Positions 7,707-62,677 of a DNA stretch of 64,000 bases are shown here, one piece after another. Source of the stretch: a virus; the IMG/VR virus record IMGVR_UViG_3300042673_001035, positions 1-64,000 of that record; one strand, given 5' to 3'. How positions within the stretch are numbered: position 1 is the stretch's first letter; each line of letters begins with the position of its first letter. Both the position numbers and the translations under genes were made by a program. The notes beneath the pieces are model-generated. The model made no database searches. It was given only the letters and a program-made list of their open reading frames with translations, and was not told the DNA's origin.

Positions 7707-8677
7707 ATTATTTTTTTTATTTTCTTAATCCAATTTTGTTTATTCGTATATTTTGTTAGTCCTTTTCTTAATTTACAAAATTCTAAATTTACTTTTTCAA
7801 ATCCATCTTCTTGTATTTCTAAATATCTTTGATGAAACTCTCCTTTACTATTTGCTCTATATTTGTAATCAATATGTTTCATCCAATCGGTATGTATGAT
7901 TGGAACTTTACCATTATCTACTGCATCAAAAATTGCATATCCAAATGGTTCTTTTATATAACATCCATGAAATATTTGAAAATTACCTTCGAAAAATTTG
8001 TTATGAAATGTATAATCAAATTCCATAAACCTATGATAGTCCGAATTAGTTTTTGAACCTTCTAACATTCTTTTATAATCATACTTGTTTGAAAATATAA
8101 TTGATGGAATGTAATCTAAATAATGTGCATTCTTTCGTGTTTCACATCTTGCAGCGTAACCAATTTTATTAGTTATTATTCCTGTAAATGGTTTATTTTG
8201 TTTCCATTCATAATAATTTGTAATCGTTTTTGTTTTTGGATATTCATTATGTATTGTATCTTTTTCATAACCTATCCAAACTATATTGTCGGAATTATCT
8301 AATATCTCTTTCTGCCAATCCCAATCCACCTTTGTCATTATATTTTCATAATCGGAATTCAATCCTAACATATCAGGAATAAAAGCATGGACAAATGTAA
8401 GATAAGTTTTATGTAAATAATTTTTGATGATAGGATTTGGTTTGTAAGAGTGGTGCAAGAAAATAATCTTATCACATTCTTTTAATATCTTATCAACTTC
8501 TTTTTCATTTTCGTAAGTATAAATTGCACCAAATTCTTTTATCAAAGGCCTACCATCAATTATAATTTTATAATCTTCTTTTACTAATGGTAAAATATTT
8601 TCTATAAAGTTATTACACCATAAATCGGCCCCACCTATAACATTTTTTCCATAACCTGTTGTAATAAATACTATCAT
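7703..8677 (-). CDS. GT4-like (GT-B) glycosyltransferase
   Basis: N-terminal GGADLW loop; EPFGYAIFDAVDNGKVPI motif. Confidence 0.75.
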   Translation of the reverse strand: MIVFITTGYGKNVIGGADLWCNNFIENILPLVKEDYKIIIDGRPLIKEFGAIYTYENEKEVDKILKECDKIIFLHHSYKPNPIIKNYLHKTYLTFVHAFIPDMLGLNSDYENIMTKVDWDWQKEILDNSDNIVWIGYEKDTIHNEYPKTKTITNYYEWKQNKPFTGIITNKIGYAARCETRKNAHYLDYIPSIIFSNKYDYKRMLEGSKTNSDYHRFMEFDYTFHNKFFEGNFQIFHGCYIKEPFGYAIFDAVDNGKVPIIHTDWMKHIDYKYRANSKGEFHQRYLEIQEDGFEKVNLEFCKLRKGLTKYTNKQNWIKKIKKII

Positions 8678-11600: not shown

Positions 11601-12525
11601 TTGAACTTTTTATATCTAAAGATTGTGTATATGTGAAATATCCACTACCTGTTAATCTAACACCACTTTCAACTCTACTAGATGTAATGAATGTATTTAA
11701 CGAACCTGTATTCCAATTATTTTTAAGTGTTTCCGATGTTAATATTCCAGTCTGTCCTACTACACTTCCTGACAAACCATATGATGTTAATAATTCTTTT
11801 GACTCAACTAATATGTCTTGTATTAAATCAAAATCGGAAATGTCACCTTCGGAAGTTCTAAATACTTTTACTCTTTTAACATCACCTGCAAATGTTTCTA
11901 ATTTTGAAAGTTTAATATTAGCAAAAGATTGATTTATTCCTGAATCTACTTTTGACCCACTTTCAATTCTATATATTGGACTTAATATTTCAGTAATAGT
12001 TGCAACAGGTCTTTGGTAAAATCTAATCTTTGTAGTATTAGCTAATGCCGGATTTACATTTATAGTTTTTGTCCACTTAACATTGTATTTATTTTCCCAA
12101 TCTAAAGGAACGGGAAGTGTAATACCATTTGTATCTTGATACTCACTTAACTCACCTAATATAGTAAGTGTACATGGGCCGTATGCTGTATCCGGATAAA
12201 CATAGACTGCAACAACTTTTGAAACACCCTCATAATATTCCGTAATTATTGATGTATTAGTAGAACCACTTATATTGGTATTAATCATACCCTCACCTGG
12301 TTCGTGATAAATTATATTACCAGCTGAATCTTTTAATTCAATTTGTATTTTAGTATCAGGAACTAAAAAGTCAGAACCTGCAATTAGGAATGCATTCTTT
12401 CCACCCGTAAATGTGCCAGGTAATTCTGTTATTTTAAAATACTTACTATCGGATTGAGTATCATCTACTAATACTGCAAACTTTTCTAAATTCTTTGGAA
12501 ATAGTGTTTTCTTTATAACAGCCAT
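8674..12525 (-). CDS. Tail fibre/spike protein with C-terminal peptidase S74 intramolecular chaperone
   Basis: SDIRAKTNI...LNPVSYDW...YGFIADDI...LDY...AIQEL; Ser-rich shaft; 10-aa AVTxGKIAAD repeats. Confidence 0.85.
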   Translation of the reverse strand: MAVIKKTLFPKNLEKFAVLVDDTQSDSKYFKITELPGTFTGGKNAFLIAGSDFLVPDTKIQIELKDSAGNIIYHEPGEGMINTNISGSTNTSIITEYYEGVSKVVAVYVYPDTAYGPCTLTILGELSEYQDTNGITLPVPLDWENKYNVKWTKTINVNPALANTTKIRFYQRPVATITEILSPIYRIESGSKVDSGINQSFANIKLSKLETFAGDVKRVKVFRTSEGDISDFDLIQDILVESKELLTSYGLSGSVVGQTGILTSETLKNNWNTGSLNTFITSSRVESGVRLTGSGYFTYTQSLDIKSSNTYELNLDAFYSSSTSSNLGIYLTQLTSSIQEISPGVSGSVSFYISSSIATLVGTTPTKNLLDTVIPFRIDRDYPSASLYFSQSQGEWHLGNISLRLSEDTAFSPDEVSFVTTMPTVIGNETYNFKFEFYDVNNNYVPVAVTQSATFNGGNTNIGGTILLISSSASSSLADLNRVSSSISGTMTVYSSSASSSVGSLSGSVSASLSSLSSSVSSSNVFILSSSLSKVQQLANGQFSGSFIGDTFIYSPTIGGQQGYISELFKVGTTPSIYLDARQNPRKIFIGGVSDSGSYNNSNTTVYMDSTGKFSLGNKLTWDGNSTLTVTGQINIEAGGNAATTTNVSTAATNAVTSGSNAAANAVISGSNAASAVDDKVFTNALGRITKTPTPGTTSGLYLGNTIMGFYNGSAWKTYMDNTGLFYLTGSNNGNALLWDGSTLTIKGNLSVGSTVPNSVVSGLGSLALKSSVSATTDVTGLGSLALKSSVSATTDVTGLGGLATKSSVTNAELADLAVTSGKLDALAVTSGKIAADAVIAGKIAADAVTSTTIAANAITAGKIAAGVVTADKITVGDLTGLNAKIGGWSINSSSIFNTNVDIDNANNRIDFKSGGIVKTRIKNGNVNIGSTSNVSITVAGAGTQFQSNEGNDSPQYGPLTALTTTGGNTVEAFVTTPSGVDGNNLALVIPYPAVTSLGLAQCHNMGTGASCQYGYDASIFYVVRETNSVGTTVASGYVTVANLEFSNNFTSPFGNVDLPGFGGGTVTIPSIGTAVSGKVYWIQVYLGTVVQARINPNGTTPLTSNASLYVIAFGWEARTANATLLAVASRAEFGTNGVQIGSAEGSYVALGDAAGAGNVGVFAGNISVTGTVAAGSVTASDIRAKTNIKTILNGIETIKKLNPVSYDWLQHITGNFEFEKGYGFIADDIQQIMPELIYEKKGYKYDDFKHLDYTSFHAIAIKAIQELTEKVEKLEAQISGSI
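10127..10240. repeat. 54-bp tandem repeat inside tail fibre (GLGSLALKSSVSATTDVT)
   Basis: Units start at 10127 and 10181 and differ by one base. Confidence 0.9.
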
Positions 12526-38356: not shown

Positions 38357-38566
38357 TTATTTTTTTAATCCGTATTTTATCCACTTATACCAAACTCTTT
38401 CGTGAATGTAATATTGAATGGGTTTATAAATCAATTCTGCTACTCCAAATGTTGCACCTATTTTAATATCACCACTTACCCACCACATTATACCAAATCC
38501 AATTAAAGTTGATACAATACGATATGAAATGGTTTTGGCAATATGTCTTTTACGCTCTACTACCAT
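38357..38566 (-). CDS. DUF2061-like small membrane protein
   Basis: RHIAKTISYR...YYIHERVW. Confidence 0.75.
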   Translation of the reverse strand: MVVERKRHIAKTISYRIVSTLIGFGIMWWVSGDIKIGATFGVAELIYKPIQYYIHERVWYKWIKYGLKK

Positions 38567-38945
38567 CTTCTTTATCTATGTTATAAATAATTACATCACC
38601 ATTTGAGTCAATGTATTTTTGTCTAATTGCAGTTCCACTAATTTTTTCTATTTCTTTTGGGGGTTCGTGATATATAACCTCATATCCAACACCTCTACCA
38701 TAGTTTACACTTTCAATGTCTGGAATAATCGATAACAATATTTTATCCCAATTGTTTGTAAAAAATGGTTCTTTTTGTAATTCTTGTAATACTTCTTGTG
38801 CTGATTTAGGATTATTTTCATCCTTTTGTACATCTCTAATTGCAACCCAACAATTTTTTCCGTTTTCTAATTGTTGATTGATTAACCACTCATGTCCTTT
38901 GTGCCATGTTTGCCATCTTCCGATGAATAATGCATATTTTTTCAT
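38550..38945 (-). CDS. Small HxGH nucleotidyltransferase (cytidyltransferase-like)
   Basis: FIGRWQTWHKGH; NP; ISGTAIR. Confidence 0.8.
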   Translation of the reverse strand: MKKYALFIGRWQTWHKGHEWLINQQLENGKNCWVAIRDVQKDENNPKSAQEVLQELQKEPFFTNNWDKILLSIIPDIESVNYGRGVGYEVIYHEPPKEIEKISGTAIRQKYIDSNGDVIIYNIDKEDGSRA

Positions 38946-40810: not shown

Positions 40811-41458
40811 TTAAATTATGTTATCTTGTCTTTCAATGATTGTAGACATATGGTCTGCCCAATGCATAATAAATTGTAACTTATAAACCAATTGTTTCTT
40901 TAAGTCGTGACCTGCTAAATACTTTTGATTATCTTCATCATACATACCATCGGTAAGTTTAATTGCAAAATATTCTTTCTCATTATACTGAATGCCGTAA
41001 TGGTTCAATGTAAAAAAAGTTCTATCGGTTAGTGTCATATATGGAATATTCTCATTACGAACAAATAAAGTTCCGTATTTTTTTTGAGACCACTCTTCCT
41101 GGTTTGGTAAATAATGTAATTCACCTTTAACACCCAGCTTTCCTAAATCGTGATGTAGACAACTAAATATCAATTCTTCTTCGGTGAAATCAATCTCTCC
41201 ACCCTGTGATACAAATAGGTCTCTCATTTTAAGAGCGTTCTTACATACATTAAAGATGTGGTCTATATACCCACCTATATATGCGTTATGATAGTGTTTT
41301 GAGCCAGATGCGGCCGATAGTGTAAGGTTAACACCCAATTCTTCTTCGGAATACATATGGAGTAATTTCTCCAATCTTTCTCCTGTGAAATATTTTTTAA
41401 TTATACCTATAAATCGGTCATAATTTGCTTTTAATTCTTGTTCTGTCTTTTGTTTCAT
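40811..41458 (-). CDS. HD-domain phosphohydrolase
   Basis: HNAYIGGYIDH...LHHDLGK...HWAD. Confidence 0.8.
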   Translation of the reverse strand: MKQKTEQELKANYDRFIGIIKKYFTGERLEKLLHMYSEEELGVNLTLSAASGSKHYHNAYIGGYIDHIFNVCKNALKMRDLFVSQGGEIDFTEEELIFSCLHHDLGKLGVKGELHYLPNQEEWSQKKYGTLFVRNENIPYMTLTDRTFFTLNHYGIQYNEKEYFAIKLTDGMYDEDNQKYLAGHDLKKQLVYKLQFIMHWADHMSTIIERQDNII

Positions 41459-41486
41459 AATTTAGAGTTTAATTGTTTATAATACT

Positions 41487-41520
41487 CTAATATACGACAA
41501 ATTTTTGATAATACCAAATT
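41487..41520 (-). promoter_or_regulatory. Bacteroidota-type sigma-A-like promoter
   Basis: TTTGGTATTATCAAAAATTTGTCGTATATTAG. Confidence 0.65.
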
Positions 41521-42002
41521 TAAATTAATGAACTTAATTTTAAATTTTTAGATACCCATACTGCCATTATTTCTCTACAACCAGATGTTATTTCTTTAAC
41601 TTCATGATATTCGGTTTTGCCGTCAAATGTTACCATATCTCCTTTTTTAAAATCAATCAACTCTTCATTAACATATAATTGTCCCCCTTCAAAATTATCA
41701 TTTAACATAATCAAATATGTTTTACTTGATTTGATGTCCAAATGTTTTTTAGCAAAATATCCAGATTCATATTTTATATAATGTAATGAATATATTATTT
41801 CATCTTTTTCTAATGTTATATATTTTGATATGGTATCGACCAATATATTATTAGTTAAATCACAATAAAATATATCTTTTAAATTTATTACGTTTTTAAA
41901 ATCGTGATATGATTTTATTTTATTGTTTTCATTTCCAAAATTATAATTTTTTAATATTATATCAATATCGTTATAATCAATTTTATTTTTAAATATCTCC
42001 AT
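41520..42002 (-). CDS. 2OG-Fe(II) oxygenase
   Basis: HLD...LNDNFEGGQL...H.V..ITSGCR. Confidence 0.85.
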   Translation of the reverse strand: MEIFKNKIDYNDIDIILKNYNFGNENNKIKSYHDFKNVINLKDIFYCDLTNNILVDTISKYITLEKDEIIYSLHYIKYESGYFAKKHLDIKSSKTYLIMLNDNFEGGQLYVNEELIDFKKGDMVTFDGKTEYHEVKEITSGCREIMAVWVSKNLKLSSLI

Positions 42003-42005
42003 AAT

Positions 42006-42629
42006 TTATATAATTTTATTTGTTTTATTCTCAAATTTTACAATTGGTTCATTCGTATTTAATAAACTATAAATTTTTTTGTAAAAGTCATAACAACCTT
42101 GCCAACCTGGATGCCAATCCATTGGATTACCCCCTTCATCCGCAATAGAAGATACTTGTATTAATTCTACAAACTCTTTTGTTTTTTCATAAAAATCATC
42201 ATTCCACGTTACAAATATTGGTTCATATTCTTTATAAAAATATTTTAACTTTTTAATAAATAGTATTTCATCGTTTCTACCGTCAGCAAGCCAACTTTCC
42301 GTTTCTTTAACTCTTAATTCTAATAATTTTTTTGCAAACGATTTGTCTTTATACCACTCCCAATTTAAATATTTTATATTGTGATTCGTTTCTCTATCTC
42401 CAAAATATCTTCTTGGAAATCTTCCAGGTGCAGTAAATACGATTACGATTCTATCTCCTTCTCTATGATTTGGAATATTTCCAGTTTGATAAACTATTGA
42501 ATGATTATCAGAACCATATTTACCGAAATTTATAATATTATAGTGATTAGATAAATAATCAACCCAATGTATTTTAGGTAAATCCCAATCAACAAAGCTA
42601 TCTCCACATATATAAAGGTTTGGCTTCAT
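42006..42629 (-). CDS. SGNH/GDSL-like protein
   Basis: CGDSF, NFGKYGSDN, DWHP. Confidence 0.6.
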   Translation of the reverse strand: MKPNLYICGDSFVDWDLPKIHWVDYLSNHYNIINFGKYGSDNHSIVYQTGNIPNHREGDRIVIVFTAPGRFPRRYFGDRETNHNIKYLNWEWYKDKSFAKKLLELRVKETESWLADGRNDEILFIKKLKYFYKEYEPIFVTWNDDFYEKTKEFVELIQVSSIADEGGNPMDWHPGWQGCYDFYKKIYSLLNTNEPIVKFENKTNKII

Positions 42630-43126
42630 ATTAATTTATTTGTTTCTAATTTTATGTGTTCATTTTGTAAAAACCAAATTAATGAATATCTATCTCCTTC
42701 TAAAATGGGTGTTATTTCGTGTTCAATTCTTACATCAAATATATAGGTATTTCCTATTTCTTTATTTAACACATATTCATCCGAATTATATAATTTAAAA
42801 TTTCCTCCCTCAAAATCATCATTCAATAATACACCCACTGCGTAAACTCTATTATCTCTAATATCATTATGTTTTCCAAACCATGCACCTTTTGTAAATT
42901 TATGAAAATGTATCCTTTTGTTTATTGTTCTGATTGTAATGTTTGTTTCCTTTTGTAAAAACTCCTTCAACTTATCAAATAACCAAATAGTATTTTTATT
43001 ATATTCTATACTCATTGATTCATACATTCTATCTTTATAGTTCCAATTTTGTTTTTTTGATTTTGATATATCAATAATTGATTGACATTCTTGTTGATTA
43101 AATAATATTTTTTGTTTTAATATCAT
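42626..43126 (-). CDS. 2OG-Fe(II) oxygenase
   Basis: HND...LNDDFEGG...HEITPILEGDRYS. Confidence 0.88.
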   Translation of the reverse strand: MILKQKILFNQQECQSIIDISKSKKQNWNYKDRMYESMSIEYNKNTIWLFDKLKEFLQKETNITIRTINKRIHFHKFTKGAWFGKHNDIRDNRVYAVGVLLNDDFEGGNFKLYNSDEYVLNKEIGNTYIFDVRIEHEITPILEGDRYSLIWFLQNEHIKLETNKLI

Positions 43127-44181
43127 AAAAGTTTTGATAAGTTTTTTCTTAATTTGTGTTTTTTAATTATATCATTCATATTATGAATGCACATTTGATT
43201 AAAACAAACTTTATTTATTTGATTTAAAAATTCTTTAAATTCAGGGTGTGATTCTGACCATATTTGTTTTATTAAAAATTCACCATCTGTATATGTTCCC
43301 CAATTTGTAATTTTATTAAAATATATTTCAACCTTTTCTTTAAGTATATTTTTCATCAATTTATAAAATGAGTCCATCTCTGTGTAATTTGTATCTTGTA
43401 CAACGAATGAAGTTCTAACTTTTTTTATTGTTTCACATTTAGAAATAAAATTTAAGTTTTCAATTAAAACGCCCCAATCCCCACCTCTTCTAATAATTTC
43501 ATATGTTTTTTGAGTTGATGCATCTATACTTATTTCTATTGTTTTTATTAAATGGTGTATGTGGCTTAAACTATTCCACATTTTTTCATTTAATAATAAT
43601 CCATTGGTATGTAAATGAATTTGTTTTATATTTGGGAATTTTTTATTATCAAAATTTAGTAATAATTTTCTAATTGATTTGGATGCAAATGGGTCTGCAG
43701 AACCTGAAAGATATAACATCTTTATATTTTTACCATAAACATCAACAATTTTATTTATTGTATTATCAATAAATTCCAATTCCGCTCCATCCGCCATAAT
43801 TGCCACATTTCTACAAGATGGACATGATAGATTACAACTTCTATCAAATGCAAAATTAATATTAGTCGGGCCGTTTTTATAATCATTAACATTAAAATTG
43901 GTTATATGTTTAAACCCCTGTGGTATGTTTTTATTAATTAACAATTCAGACAAATACGGACATTGTGTTTTTGAACAATATTTGTATGAACCATCTAAAA
44001 TTGATTCTTGTATTTTTTTTAATTCGTCACTCTCCCAAGCAGTTTCAATATCTTTTAAATTGGAAATTTTATTGGGTAACCAAGATGGACAACAACTATA
44101 TATTCCATTTTTATGTGCTTCTAAATATTCAAATGGAGTTGTACATATATATTTTTTTAGTATTTCTTCGTTTGTATCCAT
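43123..44181 (-). CDS. Radical SAM protein with N-terminal SPASM/twitch-like Cys domain
   Basis: CTTPF...SCC...YCSKTQCP; CNLSCPSC; HTNG; ISIDA. Confidence 0.88.
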   Translation of the reverse strand: MDTNEEILKKYICTTPFEYLEAHKNGIYSCCPSWLPNKISNLKDIETAWESDELKKIQESILDGSYKYCSKTQCPYLSELLINKNIPQGFKHITNFNVNDYKNGPTNINFAFDRSCNLSCPSCRNVAIMADGAELEFIDNTINKIVDVYGKNIKMLYLSGSADPFASKSIRKLLLNFDNKKFPNIKQIHLHTNGLLLNEKMWNSLSHIHHLIKTIEISIDASTQKTYEIIRRGGDWGVLIENLNFISKCETIKKVRTSFVVQDTNYTEMDSFYKLMKNILKEKVEIYFNKITNWGTYTDGEFLIKQIWSESHPEFKEFLNQINKVCFNQMCIHNMNDIIKKHKLRKNLSKLL

Positions 44182-44187
44182 TTCATC

Positions 44188-44775
44188 TTACATTAATGTT
44201 TTTTTATTTTTGAAAGCTGGAATAGTAAATAAAACATTTGCTGCGATAACAACTCTATCCTTATCCGAATTTGGAGATGTTTCGGGTCTATGATATAACC
44301 CTGCAGGGAAAACAAATAGTTCATCTTCTTCAGGTAAAATGAGTATATCTTGTTCATTATGTATAAACCCCAATCTACCATCTTTTTTTTCTAAATTATT
44401 TGGCATTTGAGCATAATATGTAAAGGTATAATCACTTATTATGGAACTTTTGACTGTTTTTGAAAATTCCATATGATTATGCCAATGGGATTGTGTAGTG
44501 TCACTTCTTAATATAAGAGCCCATGGATAGATACAATAATCTGCATTTTCAATATTTTTATCTTTATAAAATAACTCTTTACATTTTTCTACACCAAAAT
44601 TAAGTATATAATCTATCTCTTTACATTTTAATATAAGCTCTGTTTGGATACCTGGATAGTCGTATGATAAATTATGAGAAAATAATCCTACATTTTCATA
44701 AATTTTTCTAATCAAATCTTCCTTTACAAATGGAAAATTTACTTTGTATCTATGTACATTCATTTCATTAATCAT
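44188..44775 (-). CDS. 2OG-Fe(II) oxygenase-like (HxH type)
   Basis: WHNH; YYAQMP; PEEDELFVFPAGLYHRP; RVVIAAN. Confidence 0.75.
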   Translation of the reverse strand: MINEMNVHRYKVNFPFVKEDLIRKIYENVGLFSHNLSYDYPGIQTELILKCKEIDYILNFGVEKCKELFYKDKNIENADYCIYPWALILRSDTTQSHWHNHMEFSKTVKSSIISDYTFTYYAQMPNNLEKKDGRLGFIHNEQDILILPEEDELFVFPAGLYHRPETSPNSDKDRVVIAANVLFTIPAFKNKKTLM

Positions 44776-45386
44776 ATTAAGCTATTTTTACTTTTTATTT
44801 TAATATCGTTTTCAATAATCCAACCACTTATTGAATATCTTTTATAGGTTTTATCAACTATTTCATCGACGAGATGTAAATCTTTAATATTTTCAACATC
44901 AAATATATTTAAACTATTAAATTTAGGTAATAATTTATGTGTAATATTATCATTTTTATCAACAAATTGCAAGCACCCACCTTTACTTTCATCTACATCT
45001 TTTGTTAAATTATAAACAAATGCATATTTTCTATCAAACACCGAATCATTGTGTTTTGAAAGAAAACTACCATATGTATATTTTGAAATAAAAATACTTT
45101 GAGGTATGAAAAATTTGTCATTAAGTAAATTACTTAATTTAAATTCAAAATTTAACATTTTTAATAAATCATAGATAAATTCTGTATTTTCAATCTTTTC
45201 AAACCAATAAGAAAATTCACCTTTTTTAAATTTAGATTTTTCAAATTCATAAGATTTTTTATGATTAGAAGATGTTATCCAATCTTGTTGTGAATCTATT
45301 ATTTTATATATAGTTTCTGCAGTTTGTTCAGATAAAAAATTTTCTATCTGTGTTGGTTTGGTTTTTAATTCTTCTATATAATTCAT
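44772..45386 (-). CDS. 2OG-Fe(II) oxygenase (prolyl-hydroxylase-like)
   Basis: FLSKHND...FVYNLT...GGCLQF...PKFNSL...HLV...RYSISGW. Confidence 0.88.
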   Translation of the reverse strand: MNYIEELKTKPTQIENFLSEQTAETIYKIIDSQQDWITSSNHKKSYEFEKSKFKKGEFSYWFEKIENTEFIYDLLKMLNFEFKLSNLLNDKFFIPQSIFISKYTYGSFLSKHNDSVFDRKYAFVYNLTKDVDESKGGCLQFVDKNDNITHKLLPKFNSLNIFDVENIKDLHLVDEIVDKTYKRYSISGWIIENDIKIKSKNSLI

Positions 45387-45389
45387 ATA

Positions 45390-46076
45390 TTATATTAAAT
45401 TTATTTTATTTTGAAATCTTGATTCAAAGGTATTCCATAAAAAATTTTTTAAATCATCGTTTAATATAATTTTATTATTTTCTTTTTTTGTTTCATTAGT
45501 TTTTACTATTTTTAATTCTACACCAAATTTTTGGTATATAAAACTTGTAAATTTATCTAATTCTGTAATATCAAATTCGTATGTACATTTTTCATTTTCA
45601 GTCCAAAAGTTTTTAGAACCAAAAATACATAAAGTGCCAGTTAAATTTTTATTTATTTTAGTAAAAAAACCATTGTAACAATCCCGCATTTCTTCTAAAT
45701 TTTCTGAATATATTGCATTTGCAAAATTAGTATTGAAATGTTTGTAGATAAATTCATTATCAACATCTTTCCAATCTATAATTAGTTCATTTTTATGTGT
45801 GTTTTTAGAAACATCAAAAAAAAATTCTAATGCACTTAACCATCTATCAAACCAATTTCTATTAATACAAAACGTTTCTTTTATTCCAAACTCATTTATA
45901 CATTGACTTTTTCTTAAATGGTAGTGTTTTAAATTACTTTTACTATTTTTAATAAATGATTCTATTAAAGGTGATTTTTTAATTTTTAAAACTGACGATT
46001 CAAATGAATTTATTAAAGAAACAGATGCACACCTTGGTATTGAAATCCAAATAAGTTCGTTATTTATGAGTAACAT
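45390..46076 (-). CDS. Sulfotransferase-like protein
   Basis: WISIPRCASVS (5'-PSB-like), RNWFDRWLSA (3'-PB-like). Confidence 0.6.
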   Translation of the reverse strand: MLLINNELIWISIPRCASVSLINSFESSVLKIKKSPLIESFIKNSKSNLKHYHLRKSQCINEFGIKETFCINRNWFDRWLSALEFFFDVSKNTHKNELIIDWKDVDNEFIYKHFNTNFANAIYSENLEEMRDCYNGFFTKINKNLTGTLCIFGSKNFWTENEKCTYEFDITELDKFTSFIYQKFGVELKIVKTNETKKENNKIILNDDLKNFLWNTFESRFQNKINLI

Positions 46077-46088
46077 ATTAAAATATTT

Positions 46089-46358
46089 TTATAGTAACCT
46101 CTTTGATTCTGATTTTACTTTTGTAAAAAATTCATCATCTACATCTTTCCATTTACCTTTTGGACATGGATTTTGATTCTCTGAAAATATTTTTTTGGAT
46201 ATCGGACACCCACATGCCGAACAAATAGGTTTTGTTAATATAAGTTTTTTATACTCACATCCATTACATATGTTAGCTCTATTTAATGCCAACAATCTTT
46301 GGGATTCAGTTGGATTAAATGAAATTATCCAAGCATTAATTATTTCAGTAAAATTCAT
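46089..46358 (-). CDS. Small Cys-rich metal-binding protein (DUF6171-like)
   Basis: R..ICNGCE...CSACGCP...CPKGKW. Confidence 0.7.
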   Translation of the reverse strand: MNFTEIINAWIISFNPTESQRLLALNRANICNGCEYKKLILTKPICSACGCPISKKIFSENQNPCPKGKWKDVDDEFFTKVKSESKRLL

Positions 46359-46378: not shown

Positions 46379-46456
46379 TTAAGAATTGTCACTTACTATT
46401 AATGCACCTATTTGGGTCATTATAGTATTAATTGTTGTAATTTCTTGTATAGTCAT
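46379..46456 (-). CDS. 25-aa micro-ORF (not in ORF track)
   Basis: MTIQEITTINTIMTQIGALIVSDNS; fills the gap between two genes; A-rich leader. Confidence 0.5.
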   Translation of the reverse strand: MTIQEITTINTIMTQIGALIVSDNS

Positions 46457-46477: not shown

Positions 46478-47986
46478 TTATAAATACAAACAAACTCTAC
46501 CACCATCATAACAAGGGTTATTATAATTGTAAGTACAGGTTTCGTACATTTTATTACATCCACCAGCTCCGATACCAAATACGAAACAACGTTGGCATTG
46601 AAAGTTATGTTCGATTGCTACAAACATACCATCATCGGTTTTAGTTAAGAATAAGTGTTCATCCTGAACTCCAATCTGCCATCCATCAAATCCTTCTACA
46701 CTATTTGTTATATTTGTTACAGTTTTTTCGTTTACTTCAATTGTTTCTAAATTATCCGTTTGTACTAAAAGTATTTTATCACCTATTTGTAACATATCTA
46801 CTTCTTCATCTTCGGAATGAAGTTTTGTCCATTTAACAATATCACCTCTCTTTATAAGATATTGTGATATGGATGTATCCTGCCATGTTGTATTATCATC
46901 AAATGTAATTGTTGTCATTGGTGATAATACATTTGATTTTGTTTTAAACTGAACGACATTTGTACTAAATGTTGAATTTGATAAAAATTCATTAAAATCA
47001 ACTTGATAATTTCGTAATTCGTTTGATGAATCTAAATTTGGTTGATTTTCATATAATTTAATAGTCTTTATTATATCACCAGCTTGTAATTCTAATCCTG
47101 TTTTATATGTACCATCTGCCATCATTACCAAATCGGTGTCTAACAATTTAGGCCTACTAATATCTTGGGTGTTTGTGATATATGACTTTCTAAAGTTTGA
47201 GTCTATTTCGAAAGTTTCAGAATTATAAGTAACATTATCATACAATTGTACATTACCATGTTTAGTATATGCACCAATTGAAATAGATTCTAATGTCGAT
47301 GGATATAATAAATTATATGAACGAACTATACTGACTACATTATTTTCAATTTTATTTAAATTTAAATGATACTCCATTAAAAAATATTCATCGGTTACAT
47401 TTTGTAATACCACATCTAATTCTTCCAATGTAGTTACTTTATAAAATTTAGGGTATTCGTTTCTGTCGTATACCGGATATTTAGCTTTTAAAATAAAATT
47501 TGGATGTACTCCATTATCCGATATCGTTGTTATATTTGATATAAGTTCGTCATTTTCATTTTTATATGCAAATTGATGGCCAAATTCAGTAGATTGGATT
47601 AACTTTAAAAAATTAACTTTATCCTTACAATAAGTTTCATCCAATATCGCCGTAACATCATATGCACTTCTTATAATTAGATGTGTATCGGAATCATCAA
47701 CGTGTGGGATAGTTATATTACCACCTACTTCCTCAAAAGCATATTCAATATTTAAACCAGTACATAAAATTTCTAATTTATCGTGAAATTGTCTTATGCC
47801 ACCAATATATGTTACTTTAGTAAAGTTATTGGTAGTTATGAAATTGGATAATTCATCTAAATTAAATAAACTATTATATTGTTCTTGTGTTAGTCTGTTG
47901 ATACCTGAATTTGTGTTTGTTTCAATTGGTAATAAATTACCTACCGAATTATATACAAAGTCGGTTCCTAATAATACTGTTCTCAT
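46478..47986 (-). CDS. Circularly permuted ATP-grasp + Hint (intein-like) + 41-aa six-Cys C-terminal peptide
   Basis: N-terminal LLGTDF...IETNTNSG, later FILKAKYP, FLMEY, VRSY; Hint block A LLDTDLVMMADGT...LQAGD; ends AIEHN then FQCQRC...VCLYL. Confidence 0.75.
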   Translation of the reverse strand: MRTVLLGTDFVYNSVGNLLPIETNTNSGINRLTQEQYNSLFNLDELSNFITTNNFTKVTYIGGIRQFHDKLEILCTGLNIEYAFEEVGGNITIPHVDDSDTHLIIRSAYDVTAILDETYCKDKVNFLKLIQSTEFGHQFAYKNENDELISNITTISDNGVHPNFILKAKYPVYDRNEYPKFYKVTTLEELDVVLQNVTDEYFLMEYHLNLNKIENNVVSIVRSYNLLYPSTLESISIGAYTKHGNVQLYDNVTYNSETFEIDSNFRKSYITNTQDISRPKLLDTDLVMMADGTYKTGLELQAGDIIKTIKLYENQPNLDSSNELRNYQVDFNEFLSNSTFSTNVVQFKTKSNVLSPMTTITFDDNTTWQDTSISQYLIKRGDIVKWTKLHSEDEEVDMLQIGDKILLVQTDNLETIEVNEKTVTNITNSVEGFDGWQIGVQDEHLFLTKTDDGMFVAIEHNFQCQRCFVFGIGAGGCNKMYETCTYNYNNPCYDGGRVCLYL

Positions 47987-48007
47987 ATTTTATGTTTCTA
48001 TTTGTCT

Positions 48008-48015
48008 ATAAATAT
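48008..48015 (-). promoter_or_regulatory. ATATTTAT putative late promoter for the ATP-grasp/Hint gene
   Basis: Same octamer precedes structural genes. Confidence 0.5.
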
Positions 48016-48032
48016 AAATTAATTAAATAAAA

Positions 48033-49832
48033 TTATATTATTTTTTTTCCATATTGAGGTTTTGGAATATCGTTTAAGTCTTCAAATAAGATAATAGGTT
48101 CTTCAATGGTTTCAATCTCATTTGAGATTATAGTGTATGATTGTGATCCTGTTTCTTGTTTTTCTTTTAATTCTAAATATAATCCTCTATTATAGATTGA
48201 ATATGGTATTCCTATTCTTTTAAATGTCTCCTCAGCTTGTTCAATTCTTCTTAACCTATCCATTGGTGTATTCCACTTTGTTGTGAAATTAACACCATTC
48301 TCATATTCTAAATATTGTTTCTCCACATCTCTCCACTTTACTAATAGAGTTTGATGTAATAAAAATACGGAACAGGTTACTATTTCTGCCATACAATCTC
48401 TAAATTCCTCTACAAAGTCTAAAGTTTTTTGAAAATCTTCATCGGTTTCGTTTAGATATCCAACAATGATTTGCATACCAAACAACAATGGATATTCAAA
48501 TTCAGTTCCCTTATTTTCTTCATTTACCTTTCTTACATTTTCAAAAATTTCTCTCACACCTTGAACATCGGTGTATTTTTTCATATGTTTAAGAACTGGT
48601 TCGGAATAAGATTCGAATCCTGTAATAAACTTTGTTAGTCCTGCTCTACGATATAATCTTATAGTTTCTATATCTCTCATTTGAGATTGTAGTCTAACAT
48701 TACCACCGATATTAATATCTAATCCTCTTTCGATAATTTTTTCACACAATTCTTTTAACCACTTTGGATTACCATTGATAATTGAATCGTGACAAAAGAA
48801 ATACTTCTTTCCTTTTGCAACCCATCCTTCTAATTCCTCTAACACATTTTCAACGGTTCTATATCGGTATTCAGGTATATAATCCGGTACTGAACAAAAC
48901 GAACAACGATAAGGACAACCTCTACTCATTGTAATAGGTTTAGTGTCCTGATAAACTGACTTATAATAAAAATTATCTTCTAAAGAACTATAATCCGGAA
49001 TAGGTAATGCATCCATTGGAATATTTGCTCTCATTTTATTGTGGATAAAAATACCATTTAATTGCCAAATTAATCCAGGTATAGACATTAAGGACTCCTC
49101 ACTCCAATCTGACTTAAGTATTTCTACAAATGTCATCTCACCATCACCTCTACTGATTGCATCGATGAAAGTATATTCGTTTGTTTTATAATTTGAATTG
49201 GGTAATCTACCAAAGTCTAACACTTCAACACCATTACCACCAATTAAAATTTTAACCTCTGGATATTTTTCTTTTACTAATTTTGCAATTGCAAGTGTTG
49301 CATCTATATTACCATCGATAATACTAAATCCTAAAAATTTAGGCTTTGCTTTCTCTAAATATCTACCAACGAATCCGTATGCAATATCATATGTTTCCTG
49401 AAAATTATATAATAGATGAAACTGACTTTGTTTGGAGTATGTATTAAATAAATTGAAAAACTCACCTTGCTTATCCGGTGGATTTAAAAAGAAATAGTCA
49501 ATTACTGGGTCAATGATTGCAACCCTTAATTCGGGTTCATATTTGTCTATCCAAGACTTTAAACCAACTATGCCGGAATAATAACCTGATTCATTGATAT
49601 TAGGAACTTGTAATAACAAACAATCTTGTTCTTCTATATCTTGAAAATGGAATTTATGTTCTATCTCCAATCCTTTGCCTTTCTCTGCAAAAACAGTTTG
49701 ACGCATATATTGTAGTAAATCGACTTTGATGTCAAATACTTCAACACCACTTTTCATTTGGTCATCTACTCTATTCTCAACTTTTTGAATTTGACTTTCA
49801 ATATCAGGACTAATGATTTCGTCAATTTGCAT
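48033..49832 (-). CDS. Cobalamin-binding (class B) radical SAM enzyme
   Basis: ILIGG, RGDGE, LPIPDY, SRGCPYRCSFC, GFESYS, IIVGYLNET. Confidence 0.9.
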   Translation of the reverse strand: MQIDEIISPDIESQIQKVENRVDDQMKSGVEVFDIKVDLLQYMRQTVFAEKGKGLEIEHKFHFQDIEEQDCLLLQVPNINESGYYSGIVGLKSWIDKYEPELRVAIIDPVIDYFFLNPPDKQGEFFNLFNTYSKQSQFHLLYNFQETYDIAYGFVGRYLEKAKPKFLGFSIIDGNIDATLAIAKLVKEKYPEVKILIGGNGVEVLDFGRLPNSNYKTNEYTFIDAISRGDGEMTFVEILKSDWSEESLMSIPGLIWQLNGIFIHNKMRANIPMDALPIPDYSSLEDNFYYKSVYQDTKPITMSRGCPYRCSFCSVPDYIPEYRYRTVENVLEELEGWVAKGKKYFFCHDSIINGNPKWLKELCEKIIERGLDINIGGNVRLQSQMRDIETIRLYRRAGLTKFITGFESYSEPVLKHMKKYTDVQGVREIFENVRKVNEENKGTEFEYPLLFGMQIIVGYLNETDEDFQKTLDFVEEFRDCMAEIVTCSVFLLHQTLLVKWRDVEKQYLEYENGVNFTTKWNTPMDRLRRIEQAEETFKRIGIPYSIYNRGLYLELKEKQETGSQSYTIISNEIETIEEPIILFEDLNDIPKPQYGKKII

Positions 49833-49849
49833 GAATATAATAATTTAAT

Positions 49850-49882
49850 TAAATATACAAATAATTATTGAATTTTCCAAAT
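49850..49882 (-). promoter_or_regulatory. Bacteroidota-type sigma-A-like promoter
   Basis: ATTTGGAAAATTCAATAATTATTTGTATATTTA. Confidence 0.6.
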
Positions 49883-49910
49883 AAATCAATTTTATTCAAA
49901 AAAATAAAAT

Positions 49911-50558
49911 CTATATTAATGTTGAACCATTGTTATTAATATAATTAATCATTATATCAGCCAATACTTTACAGCCAAATTCGGATAGGTGGTGGTCATT
50001 TATTACGCCTTTTGTTTCATTTATTATTTCCATCTTACCTTTATAATATGACCAATATAAATTATTTACTATTTTACTTTTTTCAAATTCGGAAAAAGCT
50101 GACCAATAAACTATTTTGTTATTTTTAAATGTATAATTTAACAAATCCATCCATCCCATTATTTCTTTTAAAAATAATTCGGAATCTCTATTTACTAAAA
50201 TTTCTTGTAAAGTCCTCTCACTTATAAGTGGTAAATCTGGTAAATGATTAAGAATTATTGTATGGAAAAATTTGTTAGACATATCTGCTAGTCTAAATCT
50301 TGTTATTGATGACCATCCTATTATTATATAATCACCATCTTTGATGTTATTGATTTGTTTTATAATGGAATCTAATATCGTATAATTATCACTACCACCT
50401 TTAGCACAATTTCGAAATGGTAATTCTAAATTATCCGCAAGAATTTCTGGCCAAAATTTGGGTTCATACCCTTTCCATTTGATATATTCATCTGCCCACC
50501 GATAAGATTTATTATATCCCTCAGTATTAGAATCACCAAAAAACCATATCTTATTCAT
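49911..50558 (-). CDS. SGNH/GDSL-like protein
   Basis: FGDSNT, NCAKGGSDN, IIGWS..RF, DHHLSEFG. Confidence 0.65.
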   Translation of the reverse strand: MNKIWFFGDSNTEGYNKSYRWADEYIKWKGYEPKFWPEILADNLELPFRNCAKGGSDNYTILDSIIKQINNIKDGDYIIIGWSSITRFRLADMSNKFFHTIILNHLPDLPLISERTLQEILVNRDSELFLKEIMGWMDLLNYTFKNNKIVYWSAFSEFEKSKIVNNLYWSYYKGKMEIINETKGVINDHHLSEFGCKVLADIMINYINNNGSTLI

Positions 50559-50584
50559 ATTTTATAATATTGTTTAAATTAATT

Positions 50585-50628
50585 GGGGTGGGGGTTGGGG
50601 GAGAAAGTCGTTTTTTAAGAAAATTTTT
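50585..50628 (+). repeat. G-tract element copy 1
   Basis: GGGGTGGGGGTTGGGGGAGAAAGTCGTTTTTTAAGAAAATTTTT; inverted homolog at 60105-60151. Confidence 0.75.
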
Positions 50629-50651
50629 AGAACATACCTTCTATTGATAGT

Positions 50652-51353
50652 CTATATCAATTCTCTTTTTATACTTATTATACTTTTTAATTTCATTTTA
50701 AGATTCAATATATCATCTTCCAATTTATCAATTTCATTTTGTTTTTCCATTAATAAGTCGTATGATGTCAGTCCTCTTTCATTATTTAAAATTCGTTTTA
50801 ACCATAACTCATCTTTGTCACATAAAATATATAATTCATCCAATTTGTCTTTTGATATCATAGATAAAATTTCAACTTTTGATTTAAAATGTTTCATTTT
50901 ATGGGAATCATATAATTCGGGTTTATATTCAATTTTATAATCAAAAAATTCCGACAATTTGTCTAGATGTATCATTTTGAATCCAAAAATATTCCATATA
51001 CGATACAGATTTTTATATAAGTTTGGAGACCAATGTTCGGATTTATCATCAATCATATTTTCAATAATTACATCCAAATTCCAATCTTGTTTACGATTAT
51101 TGGAGGTGTGTATTTTGCCCTCTATATTTCCCCACACATAATCGGTTTGAATCGCCGATATGATATGTTCACACGGATTTCTATATGTTACAATTGAATT
51201 TTGTGTAATATCGATTGGTGGATTAGGTGAATTTGGGTCTATATCCACTTCCGATTGGTTTATCCAATTAGAATTTCTTACAAATCGAATACCACACTTT
51301 GGAATACAAATAATTGGTTCTCTATCTTTATATTCATGTTTTGATAAAATCAT
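50652..51353 (-). CDS. Degenerate sulfotransferase-like protein
   Basis: CIPKCGIR, YRNPCEHIISA, EHWSP. Confidence 0.5.
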   Translation of the reverse strand: MILSKHEYKDREPIICIPKCGIRFVRNSNWINQSEVDIDPNSPNPPIDITQNSIVTYRNPCEHIISAIQTDYVWGNIEGKIHTSNNRKQDWNLDVIIENMIDDKSEHWSPNLYKNLYRIWNIFGFKMIHLDKLSEFFDYKIEYKPELYDSHKMKHFKSKVEILSMISKDKLDELYILCDKDELWLKRILNNERGLTSYDLLMEKQNEIDKLEDDILNLKMKLKSIISIKRELI

Positions 51354-61214: not shown

Positions 61215-61757
61215 TTATATTAATTTTCTTTTTGCTTTGTTTCTATTCCTCAATCTATTTGTGTTATCCAATAGGTGTTCATACCTTGTATTCATTATAC
61301 CTATGTAATCCTTTATTCTTTGTATGTCCTCTTTTGTATTATATATCCTTTCGTATGTAACTTGTAAGTCAATTTCTTTTATTCCATTAATTAGTTCGTT
61401 ACGATTATAAATCACATTTTCAAATTGTTTTATATATATTTCGTTTTCTATTATCCATTCATCACTTACTTCATATCCATTACGCCATTCCTTTCGTTGT
61501 GATGCTCTGGTTTGAGATATTGCACATTCCCTTGCATCCGTTCTAGTCAATCCAATTATCTTGTCCCAATTACTGAAATCAATATCTTTTATATTTTCTA
61601 TTTCATTTATCAAATATTTCACTACGATATTATCACCTTCAATAGATTCATTTGTTCGTATTGGTTCGTGTATCATTTTATATCCCAACTCCAATGCTAA
61701 CCATTCATTCAATTGATACCCACCACTTCTCGCCAATGCTATAATTAATATTCTCAT
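61215..61757 (-). CDS. Sulfotransferase/P-loop-like protein
   Basis: IIALARSGG, HEP, LTR...AIS, VTYE. Confidence 0.7.
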   Translation of the reverse strand: MRILIIALARSGGYQLNEWLALELGYKMIHEPIRTNESIEGDNIVVKYLINEIENIKDIDFSNWDKIIGLTRTDARECAISQTRASQRKEWRNGYEVSDEWIIENEIYIKQFENVIYNRNELINGIKEIDLQVTYERIYNTKEDIQRIKDYIGIMNTRYEHLLDNTNRLRNRNKAKRKLI

Positions 61758-62029: not shown

Positions 62030-62677
62030 TTATATTATTTCTTTGTTTTTAATTCTGTTATATTTTGCTTCTAATACTTGGGATAATTTTAATTGTCCTT
62101 GTTCACTAAAATGTTTATTATCTATTTCACCATTGGTTTCATTTTTGATTATTTCAAACTCATTTAAACAATCTGCTTCTAAAGTATTTTTAAATGCTGT
62201 CCAATGTATCACATAGTTATTCTTTAATGTATGGTTTATTAAATTTATCCAATTATTAACCTCACTGTCATATTTTTTATTACTTCTATTTGCTAATAGT
62301 TTCTTTATACTATCCCTATCCATATATTCCGCATCCCTTAACATTCCATTATCATTGGGTAAATAGTTTATCCACTCTCCATTCTTATCGGTTAATCTAA
62401 ATCTAGCACTATTTGACCAACCAAATATAATTAAGTCATCTTTTTTAATTTCTTTTACAACTTTGCAAAAAGATTCAAATATAGAATAGTTATCCCAACC
62501 ACCTACACCATAATTCATTAACTTCATACCCAATCGTTCCGATAATAGTTCACCATATACTTTTGGTACATATCCTTTCCAATTTATATAATGGTGTCTC
62601 CAATGAATTACTTTACAATCTTTATTTGGTAAAAAACTTTCAGTAAAACTATCACCAAATGTCCACAATTTTAACAT
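62030..62677 (-). CDS. SGNH/GDSL-like protein (paralog of 49911-50558)
   Basis: FGDSFT, YINWKGYVPK, FGWS..RFRL, ETNGEIDNKHFSEQG. Confidence 0.65.
   Translation of the reverse strand: MLKLWTFGDSFTESFLPNKDCKVIHWRHHYINWKGYVPKVYGELLSERLGMKLMNYGVGGWDNYSIFESFCKVVKEIKKDDLIIFGWSNSARFRLTDKNGEWINYLPNDNGMLRDAEYMDRDSIKKLLANRSNKKYDSEVNNWINLINHTLKNNYVIHWTAFKNTLEADCLNEFEIIKNETNGEIDNKHFSEQGQLKLSQVLEAKYNRIKNKEII

Follow-up and report, generated by a model that had tools for sequence, protein, structure and literature searches.

A gene on the minus strand of a 64,000-nucleotide stretch of viral DNA (IMG/VR virus record IMGVR_UViG_3300042673_001035, positions 1 to 64,000; called the window below, and the source of all coordinates unless another locus is named) encodes a fusion protein of 502 amino acids (aa). 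A sequence-only reading had taken the product for a self-processing polyprotein composed of a permuted ATP-grasp ligase, a Hint domain and a 41-aa peptide with six cysteines. The open reading frame (ORF) and its six-Cys tail were found as claimed in the translation of 46478..47986. The parts of the gene, with the evidence for each, are as follows:

46478..47986 (stop included), minus strand: fusion gene, ATP-grasp, Hint and Cys-rich tail, 502 aa (ORF, homologues and AlphaFold2 (AF2) model)
47150..47986, minus strand: residues 1-279, predicted minimal circularly permuted ATP-grasp, with D9 and E22-x-N24 first, then R106, K167, E200-Y201 and R222 (conservation and fold search)
46604..47149, minus strand: residues 280-461, Hint domain, with Lys280 at position 1, Thr371-x-x-Ser374, His444 (block F) and His460-Asn461 (block G) (conservation, fold and hhalign)
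46481..46603, minus strand: residues 462-502, hypervariable 41-aa tail with 6 Cys and a near-conserved C-x-K (C477, K479), predicted released payload (sequence and relatives)

A word-indexed search returned 702 homologues of the fusion protein at E<=1e-3, nearly all of 485-520 aa and all annotated as 'hypothetical'; the architecture of the ORF is therefore not a product of chance. An exhaustive profile search of 1.84 billion representatives gave 358 family members, and relatives were encoded on 99 IMG/VR stretches. One IMG/VR contig of 211 kb (loci L006 and L052) carried two divergent copies, 76% and 45% identical to that of the window. No prokaryotic relative was found in 185,579 species genomes by a pattern-based scan, in which absence is weak evidence. 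A tblastn search of 50,697 GenBank phage records gave no match, so there was no cultured relative to use. The window protein had nothing significant in Pfam, PHROGs or the PDB by phmmer or profile search, the best hits being Ataxin-1 AXH (E 0.48) and glutathione peroxidase (E 0.59). A fold search of BFVD matched Hint-bearing viral proteins and no named protein spanning both domains. No published description of an ATP-grasp-Hint-Cys-peptide fusion or of its layout was found in the full-text literature, a search that did not cover the supplements of PMC3482391 and PMC2938197, which list many architectures. The fusion is a widespread, virus-only and undescribed architecture.

The AF2 model of the fusion protein was built on 117 homologues and had a mean predicted local distance difference test score (pLDDT) of 84.2 and a predicted template modelling score (pTM) of 0.77. 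For the Hint part (residues 275-464), the best structural match was BIL2 of Tetrahymena (6y75), a bacterial intein-like (BIL) domain, with a Foldseek E value of 4e-8 and a VIA Z score of 14.1 (root-mean-square deviation (rmsd) 3.0, 150 aligned). Many inteins followed at Z 11-13, together with the Clostridium thermocellum BIL 2lwy (Z 12.4) and Hedgehog (1at0, Z 12.1). All of the best 50 VIA rows were inteins, BIL or Hedgehog domains, and the fold is accordingly that of the Hint superfamily. Structural alignment placed model residue 280 on residue 1 of inteins and on Cys258 of Hedgehog, and residue 461 on the last residue. The domain borders of 47149 and 46604, the His-Asn end, the Lys at Hint position 1 and the Phe at +1, all of which had been read from the sequence, agree with this alignment to BIL2, inteins and Hedgehog.

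Pro279, Lys280, His444, Glu459, His460 and Asn461 were invariant among the 117 homologues, and Ser374 was at least 90% conserved. Among near-full-length representatives of the wider family, His-Asn was present at the junction in 105 of 112, and two of the exceptions kept the Asn. Alignment by hhalign of the window Hint with the canonical second Hint found in distant relatives gave a probability of 96.4% (E 1.3e-9, 128 columns); Lys280 was mapped to Cys1, Thr371-x-x-Ser374 to the Thr-x-x-His of block B, and His444 to the block-F His. The block-F His and the C-terminal His-Asn of block G, by which a Hint domain is recognized, are both present. The features of a splicing intein are missing: position 1 is Lys280 and not Cys, Ser or Thr, the block-B His is replaced by Ser374, and the +1 residue is Phe in the window and variable in 121 relatives (V 23, Y 19, A 18 and others; S 5, T 5, C 2). 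The gathering score of PF07591 (pretoxin-HINT, PT-HINT) was not reached, with no hit at E<=1 on the window protein or on 24 relatives; one distant family member scored 21.3 bits (cut-off 27.7, E 3.4e-4), which is sub-threshold.

Asparagine cyclisation can run without the N-terminal steps of splicing, as is established in intein chemistry. The pattern of residues in the Hint domain fits C-terminal cleavage only. Since substitutions occupy the positions needed for the N-S acyl shift, position +1 varies and the residues for Asn cyclisation are invariant, the protein would be cut only at Asn461|Phe462. This expectation is well grounded, and we consider cleavage at Asn461 probable.

At the N-terminus, the motif G7-x-D9-F10 ... 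E22-x-N24-x-x-S27-G28 is followed by K167 (in NFILKAKYP), E200-Y201 and R222. D9, E22, N24, R106, K167 and R222 were invariant or at least 90% conserved in the homologues. Their equivalents were invariant even in a subfamily only 27-41% identical, which argues for a working enzyme. The roles of these residues in binding ATP and Mg were assigned by motif order, not by residue-level superposition. Modelled alone, residues 1-279 reached a pLDDT of 92.1. In an exhaustive comparison of this model with 48,161 PDB chains, ATP-grasp enzymes occupied 47 of the best 50 rows. Eleven permuted enzymes among the matches listed were aligned from model residue 1-4 to about residue 275. These matches included YgiC (7uka; Z 8.4, rmsd 4.4, 201 aligned, covering only YgiC residues 94..379), glutathionylspermidine synthetase (2io7, Z 8.0), 5oeu (Z 7.9) and 9cjn (Z 6.9), as well as eukaryotic glutathione and homoglutathione synthetases, trypanothione synthetase, 3k1t, 3n6x and the fungal Cp1B. 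Classical ATP-grasp enzymes (RimK, LysX/ArgX, Ddl, PurK, GshB, tubulin tyrosine ligases (TTLs) and synapsin) were aligned only from residue 48-57 of the model, starting at about their own residue 1. The first 55 or so residues, which hold Asp9 and Glu22-x-Asn24, correspond to a piece that forms the C-terminal end of the classical enzymes. By Foldseek, YjfC was matched at E 2.9e-6, with a range of 3e-6 to 1e-3 for the permuted clade. On its modelled fold, the N-terminal domain is a circularly permuted ATP-grasp of the type of YgiC, glutathionylspermidine synthetase (GspS) and eukaryotic glutathione synthetase (GS), although no curated ATP-grasp sequence model recognised it and searches of Pfam, PHROGs and PDB sequences brought no significant hit. 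The permuted order, with the motif at the N-terminus and K, EY and R behind it, had been proposed from the sequence; both the order and the fold itself were recovered here, only permuted enzymes aligning over residues 1-275. In the reactions of glutathione and glutathionylspermidine synthetases, a peptide is activated at its C-terminal carboxylate and coupled there to an amine. YgiC and YjfC are called 'peptidylpolyamine synthetases' in PMC12568646.

The tail is the variable part of the protein. In all 121 relatives, [IVL]-E-H-N led into a tail of 24-132 aa (median 38), so that the predicted combination of a conserved ATP-grasp and Hint with a variable Cys-rich tail held in every one. The number of Cys in the tail was 6 in 64 relatives, 8 in 49, 10 in five, 4 in two and 7 in one, and hence even in 120. 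Short tails of the wider family had an even Cys count of at least four in 61 of 64 cases. Conserved Cys frameworks with variable loops were observed. Among six close relatives, dN was 0.205 for the tail compared to 0.102 for the ATP-grasp and 0.065 for the Hint, a two- to threefold difference. Positive or diversifying selection on the tail was considered and dropped, dN/dS being about 0.2.

Other architectures occur in distant members of the family. In one variant the Cys-rich peptide is followed by a second, canonical Hint that starts with Cys and ends in His-Asn and a few basic residues. The second Hints of P0182, P0204 and P0230 scored 41-58 bits with Intein_splicing (cut-off 35.8), and that of P0230 scored 49 bits with PT-HINT. 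Their +1 residue is Lys, Val, Ala or Arg; as this is not a nucleophile, an interpretation as mobile mini-inteins was rejected. By their sequence, the second Hints are BIL-like modules and should be able to form a thioester at the C-terminus of the payload. P0263 (765 aa) has three Hints in tandem. Peptidase_S74 is a self-cleaving intramolecular chaperone of trimeric phage fibres and spikes, and in a further variant, which includes that of IMG/VR locus L082, the Cys-rich peptide is followed by such a domain, with a Ser-Asp-x-Arg-x-Lys start. P0211 scored 25.3 bits with Peptidase_S74 (cut-off 22), and three others were just below the cut-off. In a third variant the payload is replaced by a long cargo. 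The related-locus search found no loci encoding P0204, of the two-Hint type, or P0179, of the type with BACON domains. Self-cleaving modules on both sides of the payload would be difficult to account for if the payload were not excised, and this strengthens the case for release.

The fusion gene lies in an island of genes whose products mostly share a C-terminal tag, defined as [LI][LIM]-COOH preceded by Lys, Asn, Thr or Ser and of the type K-x-x-K-T-L-I-COOH. Its neighbours are listed below, with the number of related loci that hold them where this was counted; for these counts the window neighbours were compared with all ORFs of 80 loci.

46379..46456, minus strand: tiny ORF, 25 aa, ending ..IG.LI...NS, directly downstream of the fusion gene (conservation)
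46089..46358, minus strand: 89-aa zinc-ribbon-like protein, C-x2-C ... C-x2-C-G-C-P ... C-P-x-x-K-W, tagged (alignment and linkage)
45390..46076, minus strand: 228-aa protein with no assigned family, tagged (57/80 loci)
44772..45386, minus strand: 2-oxoglutarate (2OG)-Fe(II) oxygenase, 204 aa, tagged
44188..44775, minus strand: 2OG-Fe(II) oxygenase-like protein, 195 aa, weak Pfam hit, tagged
43123..44181, minus strand: radical S-adenosylmethionine (SAM) enzyme, 352 aa, tagged (40/80 loci)
40811..43126, minus strand: four more tagged genes, encoding a 215-aa protein, a 160-aa 2OG oxygenase, a 207-aa protein and a 166-aa 2OG oxygenase
48033..51353, minus strand: three upstream tagged genes, encoding a B12-binding radical SAM enzyme of 599 aa, a GDSL-like esterase of 215 aa and a 233-aa protein

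The tag was found on 12 of 13 consecutive genes between 40811 and 51353, the single exception being the fusion gene. Across the contig it was present on 21 of 172 ORFs, and the difference between the island (12/13) and the rest (9/159) was highly significant (Fisher p 3.8e-12). It was kept within families across loci: in the 166-aa 2OG oxygenases (92/95), the 228-aa proteins (43/43), the radical SAM enzymes (33/35), the 89-aa proteins (48/57), the 2OG_a oxygenases (16/19) and the GDSL-like esterases (19/27). It was absent from ordinary families interspersed among them, namely DUF2061 (0/24), p131 (0/29), Hsp20 (0/16), p363 (0/14) and p341 (0/11). As a small control, a 24-kb stretch of cyanophage S-SSM7 that has three 2OG oxygenases and no fusion gene had a tag-like end on 1 of 20 ORFs. 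In the tag, Thr, Leu and Ile were each encoded by 3-5 codons and all of TAA, TAG and TGA were used as stops. Such synonymous variation points to a constraint on the protein, and an origin of the tag at the nucleotide level, as a shared junction signal, was rejected on the varied codons and the use of all three stops. At locus L082, of the Peptidase_S74 type, the fusion gene was likewise followed by a small ORF, and both the zinc-ribbon gene and a downstream gene were tagged. Five tagged genes were observed outside the island (5428..8677, 61215..61757 and 62030..62677, all on the minus strand), with the ends ..KRLLI, ..KNKLI, ..KKII, ..KRKLI and ..KEII. Three of them adjoin the tail-fibre gene at 8674..12525, and one of the five encodes a second GDSL-like esterase.

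The tiny ORF was present in 79 of the 80 loci by eye and in 78 by pattern, as 49 distinct sequences of 24-30 aa that end in ..I-G-x-L-I-x-x-x-N-S and start 13-59 nucleotides (nt) past the stop codon of the fusion gene. The zinc-ribbon gene, with a relative in 77 of 80 loci, almost always at most two genes from the fusion gene, was the most constant protein partner. The 166-aa 2OG oxygenase had a relative in 68 of 80. On the 211-kb contig, a separate tiny ORF and zinc-ribbon gene accompany each of the two fusion copies. Alignment of the 89-aa family gave an invariant Trp10, Arg27, five Cys and the C-P-x-x-K-W motif, and a C-terminus of K-x-x-K-T-[LIMFV]-[LIFY] past a variable linker. The protein resembles DUF6171 weakly and falls in virus-only Atlas clusters. 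As an N-terminal domain, the zinc ribbon was found in enzymes, namely the 2OG oxygenase P0271, the SnoaL_2 proteins P0272-P0278 and the GT2/GlcNAc transferases P0279-P0282. Occurring free or fused to diverse tailoring enzymes, it probably behaves like a recruitment module, with a likeness to the recognition elements of ribosomally synthesised and post-translationally modified peptides (RiPPs) that is a functional analogy and not homology. An Atlas cluster of 397 aa also contains this domain. A second, shorter paralogue of 75-77 aa without the tag was observed at 3862..4089 of locus L025 and at 12216..12449 of loci L047 and L075. A predicted complex of the full fusion protein with ATP, Mg and the 89-aa protein gave scores of 0.02 and 0.05 against a mark of 0.32, which is evidence neither for nor against binding.

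The sequence-only reading had stated that the gene carries a motif found before structural genes, and such a motif does precede it and is shared with the tail-fibre gene:

48008..48015, minus (coding) strand: ATATTTAT, promoter-like motif, 22 nt upstream of the ATG of the fusion gene
12540, 16890, 17586, 20739, 25397, 31933, 40272, 48008 and 53341, minus strand: ATATTTAT before ORF starts

ATATTTAT is under-represented in the window (13 found, 27 expected), and 11 of the 13 copies are on the coding strand. Nine of these 11 lie 5-26 nt before an ORF start, including that of the tail-fibre gene. TATTTAT was found at -23 to -34 in 44 of 54 distinct regions upstream of homologous genes, whatever the gene upstream. 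ATATTTAT looks like a candidate promoter of the late or structural class for this group of phages, unlike the T4 late TATAAATA. A canonical T4 late promoter for the fusion gene was sought and rejected: TATAAATA is absent from the coding strand there, the copy at 48007..48014 is the reverse complement on the opposite strand and overlaps ATATTTAT, and the motif shows no enrichment in the window (15 copies against 24 expected). Two 151-nt contigs of a freshwater metatranscriptome (X20) matched the fusion gene at 47579..47729 and 47836..47986, with 1 and 2 mismatches, and covered that gene alone, the rest of the stretch being uncovered; they may derive from DNA, could not reveal where a transcript ends and permit no conclusion on expression.

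The window is part of a contig of 116,680 bp with 30% G+C and nearly all genes on the minus strand. T4-type functions (SbcCD-like gp46/47, a baseplate wedge protein and long tail fibres) are encoded on it, as are auxiliary genes in the style of cyanophages (carbamoyltransferase, Hsp20 and peptide deformylase). Near-identical DNA was found in metagenome runs labelled as lake water (X4-X8, at least five studies), with a share of 0.92-0.97, in addition to three runs that may be the source. The source is an uncultured, T4-like phage of lake water. In 41 of 80 loci, genes for a 69-aa DUF2061 membrane protein and a 131-aa cytidylyltransferase/kinase-like protein are the immediate upstream neighbours of the fusion gene; in the window the pair is at 38357..38945 (minus strand), about 8 kb away, which suggests that the island was inserted or rearranged here. 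Two tandem genes of glycosyltransferase family 7 (B4GALT-like), without the tag, were observed at 837..3550 (minus strand), the first with a Laminin_G_3/ConA-like insert.

On balance we lean, without great confidence, towards the fusion protein being a self-releasing, RiPP-like peptide precursor with a catalytic 'leader' that removes itself. The constant 461 aa of ATP-grasp and Hint would be this giant leader and the 41-aa tail the core peptide. Cyclisation of Asn461 would cut the Asn461|Phe462 bond and free the tail with a new alpha-amine. The ATP-grasp fused in cis would then most likely form one amide bond on the payload, by acylation or head-to-tail closure of the freed N-terminus or by a bond to the conserved Lys, and for any particular substrate of the ligase our confidence is slight at best. 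Judged by linkage, the maturation machinery would consist of the 25-aa ORF, the zinc-ribbon protein and the surrounding products that bear the tag (oxygenases, radical SAM enzymes, esterases and others), the zinc-ribbon protein being the probable module that recruits the maturation enzymes. The late-type promoter motif suggests that the peptide would be made late and leave the cell at lysis or with the virion. Of what had been read from the sequence, the three-part architecture, the permutation, the loss of the splicing nucleophiles and the retention of His-Asn found support in the predicted structures, the fold searches, the profile-profile alignment and the conserved residues; cleavage, ligation and modification stay inferred.

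Several observations weigh against this interpretation. The Z scores of the ATP-grasp matches, at about 8, are modest, and the ATP-grasp and Hint models of Pfam were without significance on the window protein. The tail was modelled at a pLDDT of only 44-59, and dN/dS was about 0.2 everywhere, the tail being like the body (41 codons, with dS near saturation). Lys is absent from about a tenth of the tails, and Pro stands at +1 in 7 of 121 relatives. The adjoining B12 radical SAM gene was found in only 6 of 80 loci, and the enzyme content varies by locus. In the long-cargo variant a cargo of 500-1240 aa with BACON domains takes the place of the payload, which speaks against a small Cys peptide as the universal product, and in P0170, P0261 and P0263 only 2-7 residues and no Cys-rich payload lie between the Hints. 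The small Cys peptide is thus not the sole cargo, and the term RiPP does not suit every member of the family.

Among the other explanations, an ATP-driven, Hint-gated protein ligation is unlikely. The carboxylate of the tagged proteins, or of the zinc-ribbon carrier, would be joined to the amine unmasked by the Hint, and the Cys peptide would become a C-terminal appendage that targets, for example, a virion or host structure. About 15 proteins of the contig with a conserved free C-terminus are clustered round the ligase gene, and next to that gene lies one for a small zinc-ribbon protein whose C-terminal tail is flexible and conserved. Characterised members of the closest structural clade join a peptide carboxylate to an amine, complexes of LysX/ArgX with LysW are among the fold matches (3vpb, 5k2m; Z 5.4-5.7), and BIL2, the best match of the Hint, is a conjugation device (PMC8616854). 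However, one fusion molecule could tag one protein only. The enzymes fused to the zinc ribbon are mostly without the tag, which fits a docking role better than a role as substrate, and the N-terminal domain lacks the substrate-binding region that precedes the ATP-grasp in YgiC, of which only 94..379 was aligned. It is improbable that no cleavage takes place and that a degenerate Hint merely serves as a spacer between an ordinary small-molecule ligase and a zinc-binding Cys tail, the neighbours being no more than a dioxygenase-rich variable island of the kind known from cyanophages. Cys1 and the block-B His are indeed lost, the Hint was matched by no sequence family model, even numbers of Cys would also suit Zn(Cys)4 or Zn2Cys6 sites, and tandem dioxygenase arrays are known in cyanophages (PMC2938197). 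A decayed domain would not keep His444, His460 and Asn461 invariant in 117 sequences and His-Asn in 105 of 112 distant representatives, nor would a cofactor-binding module be hypervariable in length and sequence. The second self-cleaving module right after the tail in relatives also stands against this explanation, as do the tag and partners, which are tied to the fusion gene and not to dioxygenases in general.

Assembly or decoration of the virion, with the ATP-grasp-Hint part delivering and perhaps covalently fixing a cargo on the particle (a small knot, a trimeric fibre piece or a BACON adhesin) and the tagged enzymes modifying virion proteins, we find hard to credit to much the same degree. 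The fusion gene lies in an enzyme island and not in the structural block, and a peptide of 24-56 aa is small for a structural part, even though the promoter-like motif also precedes the tail-fibre gene and other large genes, variants with Peptidase_S74 or BACON domains exist, and three tagged genes (5428..8677) are directly beside the tail-fibre gene. The least probable of these alternatives is an effector like the polymorphic toxins, in which lysis frees a disulfide-rich peptide that poisons microbes or grazers or manipulates the host, and the constant part serves only for the production of that peptide. PT-HINT polymorphic toxins are likewise built of a constant body and, behind a Hint, a variable C-terminal cargo (PMC3482391); the even Cys counts, the conserved frameworks with variable loops and the two divergent copies on one phage contig (L006, L052) would also be in keeping with a toxin. 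Against it, there is no evident immunity gene, dN/dS gave no sign of diversifying selection, the fusion protein has no secretion signal, and the role of the invariant ATP-grasp would be left unexplained.

A bolder version of the self-releasing precursor is rather unlikely. The protein would be an ATP-powered counterpart of protein splicing, in which the Hint unmasks the alpha-amine and the ATP-grasp supplies an acyl-phosphate instead of the thioester of an intein, with the C-terminus of the peptide or the K-T-L-I-COOH tag as acyl partner; zinc ribbon and tag together would be a new code for enzyme recruitment in a virus-only pathway of peptide maturation. If the acyl partner were the peptide's own C-terminus, a head-to-tail cyclic, cystine-knot-like peptide, a phage 'cyclotide', would result, and if it were the common tag, the products would be peptide-tagged enzymes.

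Should the fusion protein be a self-releasing precursor, large freshwater and marine phages would produce small disulfide-type peptides in a way that matches no RiPP class described so far, from a precursor that brings its own ligase and a leader-removing Hint and with tailoring enzymes marked by a common tag or a zinc-ribbon fusion. The tag would be a testable new targeting signal. The family would offer a large and diverse library of Cys-framework peptides (702 proteins; 358 representatives at 50% identity) and, for the protein-engineering toolbox, a natural cleavage-only Hint and possibly a module for ATP-driven ligation or cyclisation. The 2OG oxygenases and radical SAM enzymes that stand in arrays in the T4-like phages of aquatic bacteria, a long-standing puzzle, would also gain a purpose. 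The tandem dioxygenase arrays of cyanophages were called 'remarkable' by Iyer et al. 2010 (PMC2938197), who left their role open, and the accessible part of that paper makes no mention of the fusion protein.

Each part of the system has a known counterpart. As in PT-HINT (PF07591) proteins and A-type BIL domains, the Hint ends in His-Asn and is followed at once by a variable C-terminal cargo. For PT-HINT, it is accepted that the cargo is freed by autoproteolysis (PMC3482391). Unlike in these systems, the Hint of the fusion protein has neither Cys1 nor the block-B His, is joined to an ATP-grasp and was found only in phage contigs, and the cargo is usually a Cys-rich peptide of 24-56 aa and not a toxin domain. 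The N-terminal domain has the fold and the circular permutation of GspS, YgiC/YjfC, eukaryotic GS and Cp1B, and the acidic/Asn, Lys and Arg positions are conserved. It differs from GspS, YgiC and GS in being only 279 aa long, without the N-terminal substrate-binding region, with about 10% identity, no Pfam match and a fused Hint.

In the BUBL loci of ciliates (BIL-ubiquitin-like-BIL; BIL2 of T. thermophila, 6y75/6tmm), a small payload is flanked by Hints, as in the relatives of the order Hint1-peptide-Hint2. BIL2 is described as a conjugation device in section 2.4 of PMC8616854. BIL2 uses Cys1 and the block-B His and no ATP, whereas the first Hint of the fusion lacks both and has an ATP-grasp attached; the payload is ubiquitin-like in BUBL and Cys-rich in the fusion. 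The arrangement of a LysW/LysX pair is similar in that an ATP-grasp gene lies beside that of a small zinc-ribbon protein whose flexible C-terminal tail is conserved, and LysX/ArgX are among the fold matches. LysX, however, has the classical topology and the phage domain is permuted, and LysW ends in acidic residues, not in K-T-L-I.

With RiPP pathways the system shares a conserved recognition part with a hypervariable core, radical SAM and 2OG neighbours and a small domain that occurs free or fused to enzymes. It departs from them in that the 'leader' would be a self-removing enzyme of 461 aa and the recruitment domain a zinc ribbon, not a PqqD-like RiPP recognition element (RRE). A common C-terminal tag on the enzymes is not known from any RiPP class. 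An assignment to the graspetides was rejected on topology, 7mgv being matched at Z 3.9 and aligned only from residue 55; the tails are Cys-rich and lack the conserved acid/hydroxyl pairs of a microviridin-type core. As a whole, the fusion protein is a member of no curated family and works like a PT-HINT/BIL cargo-release module combined with a GspS/GS-type ligase in a RiPP-like set of genes.

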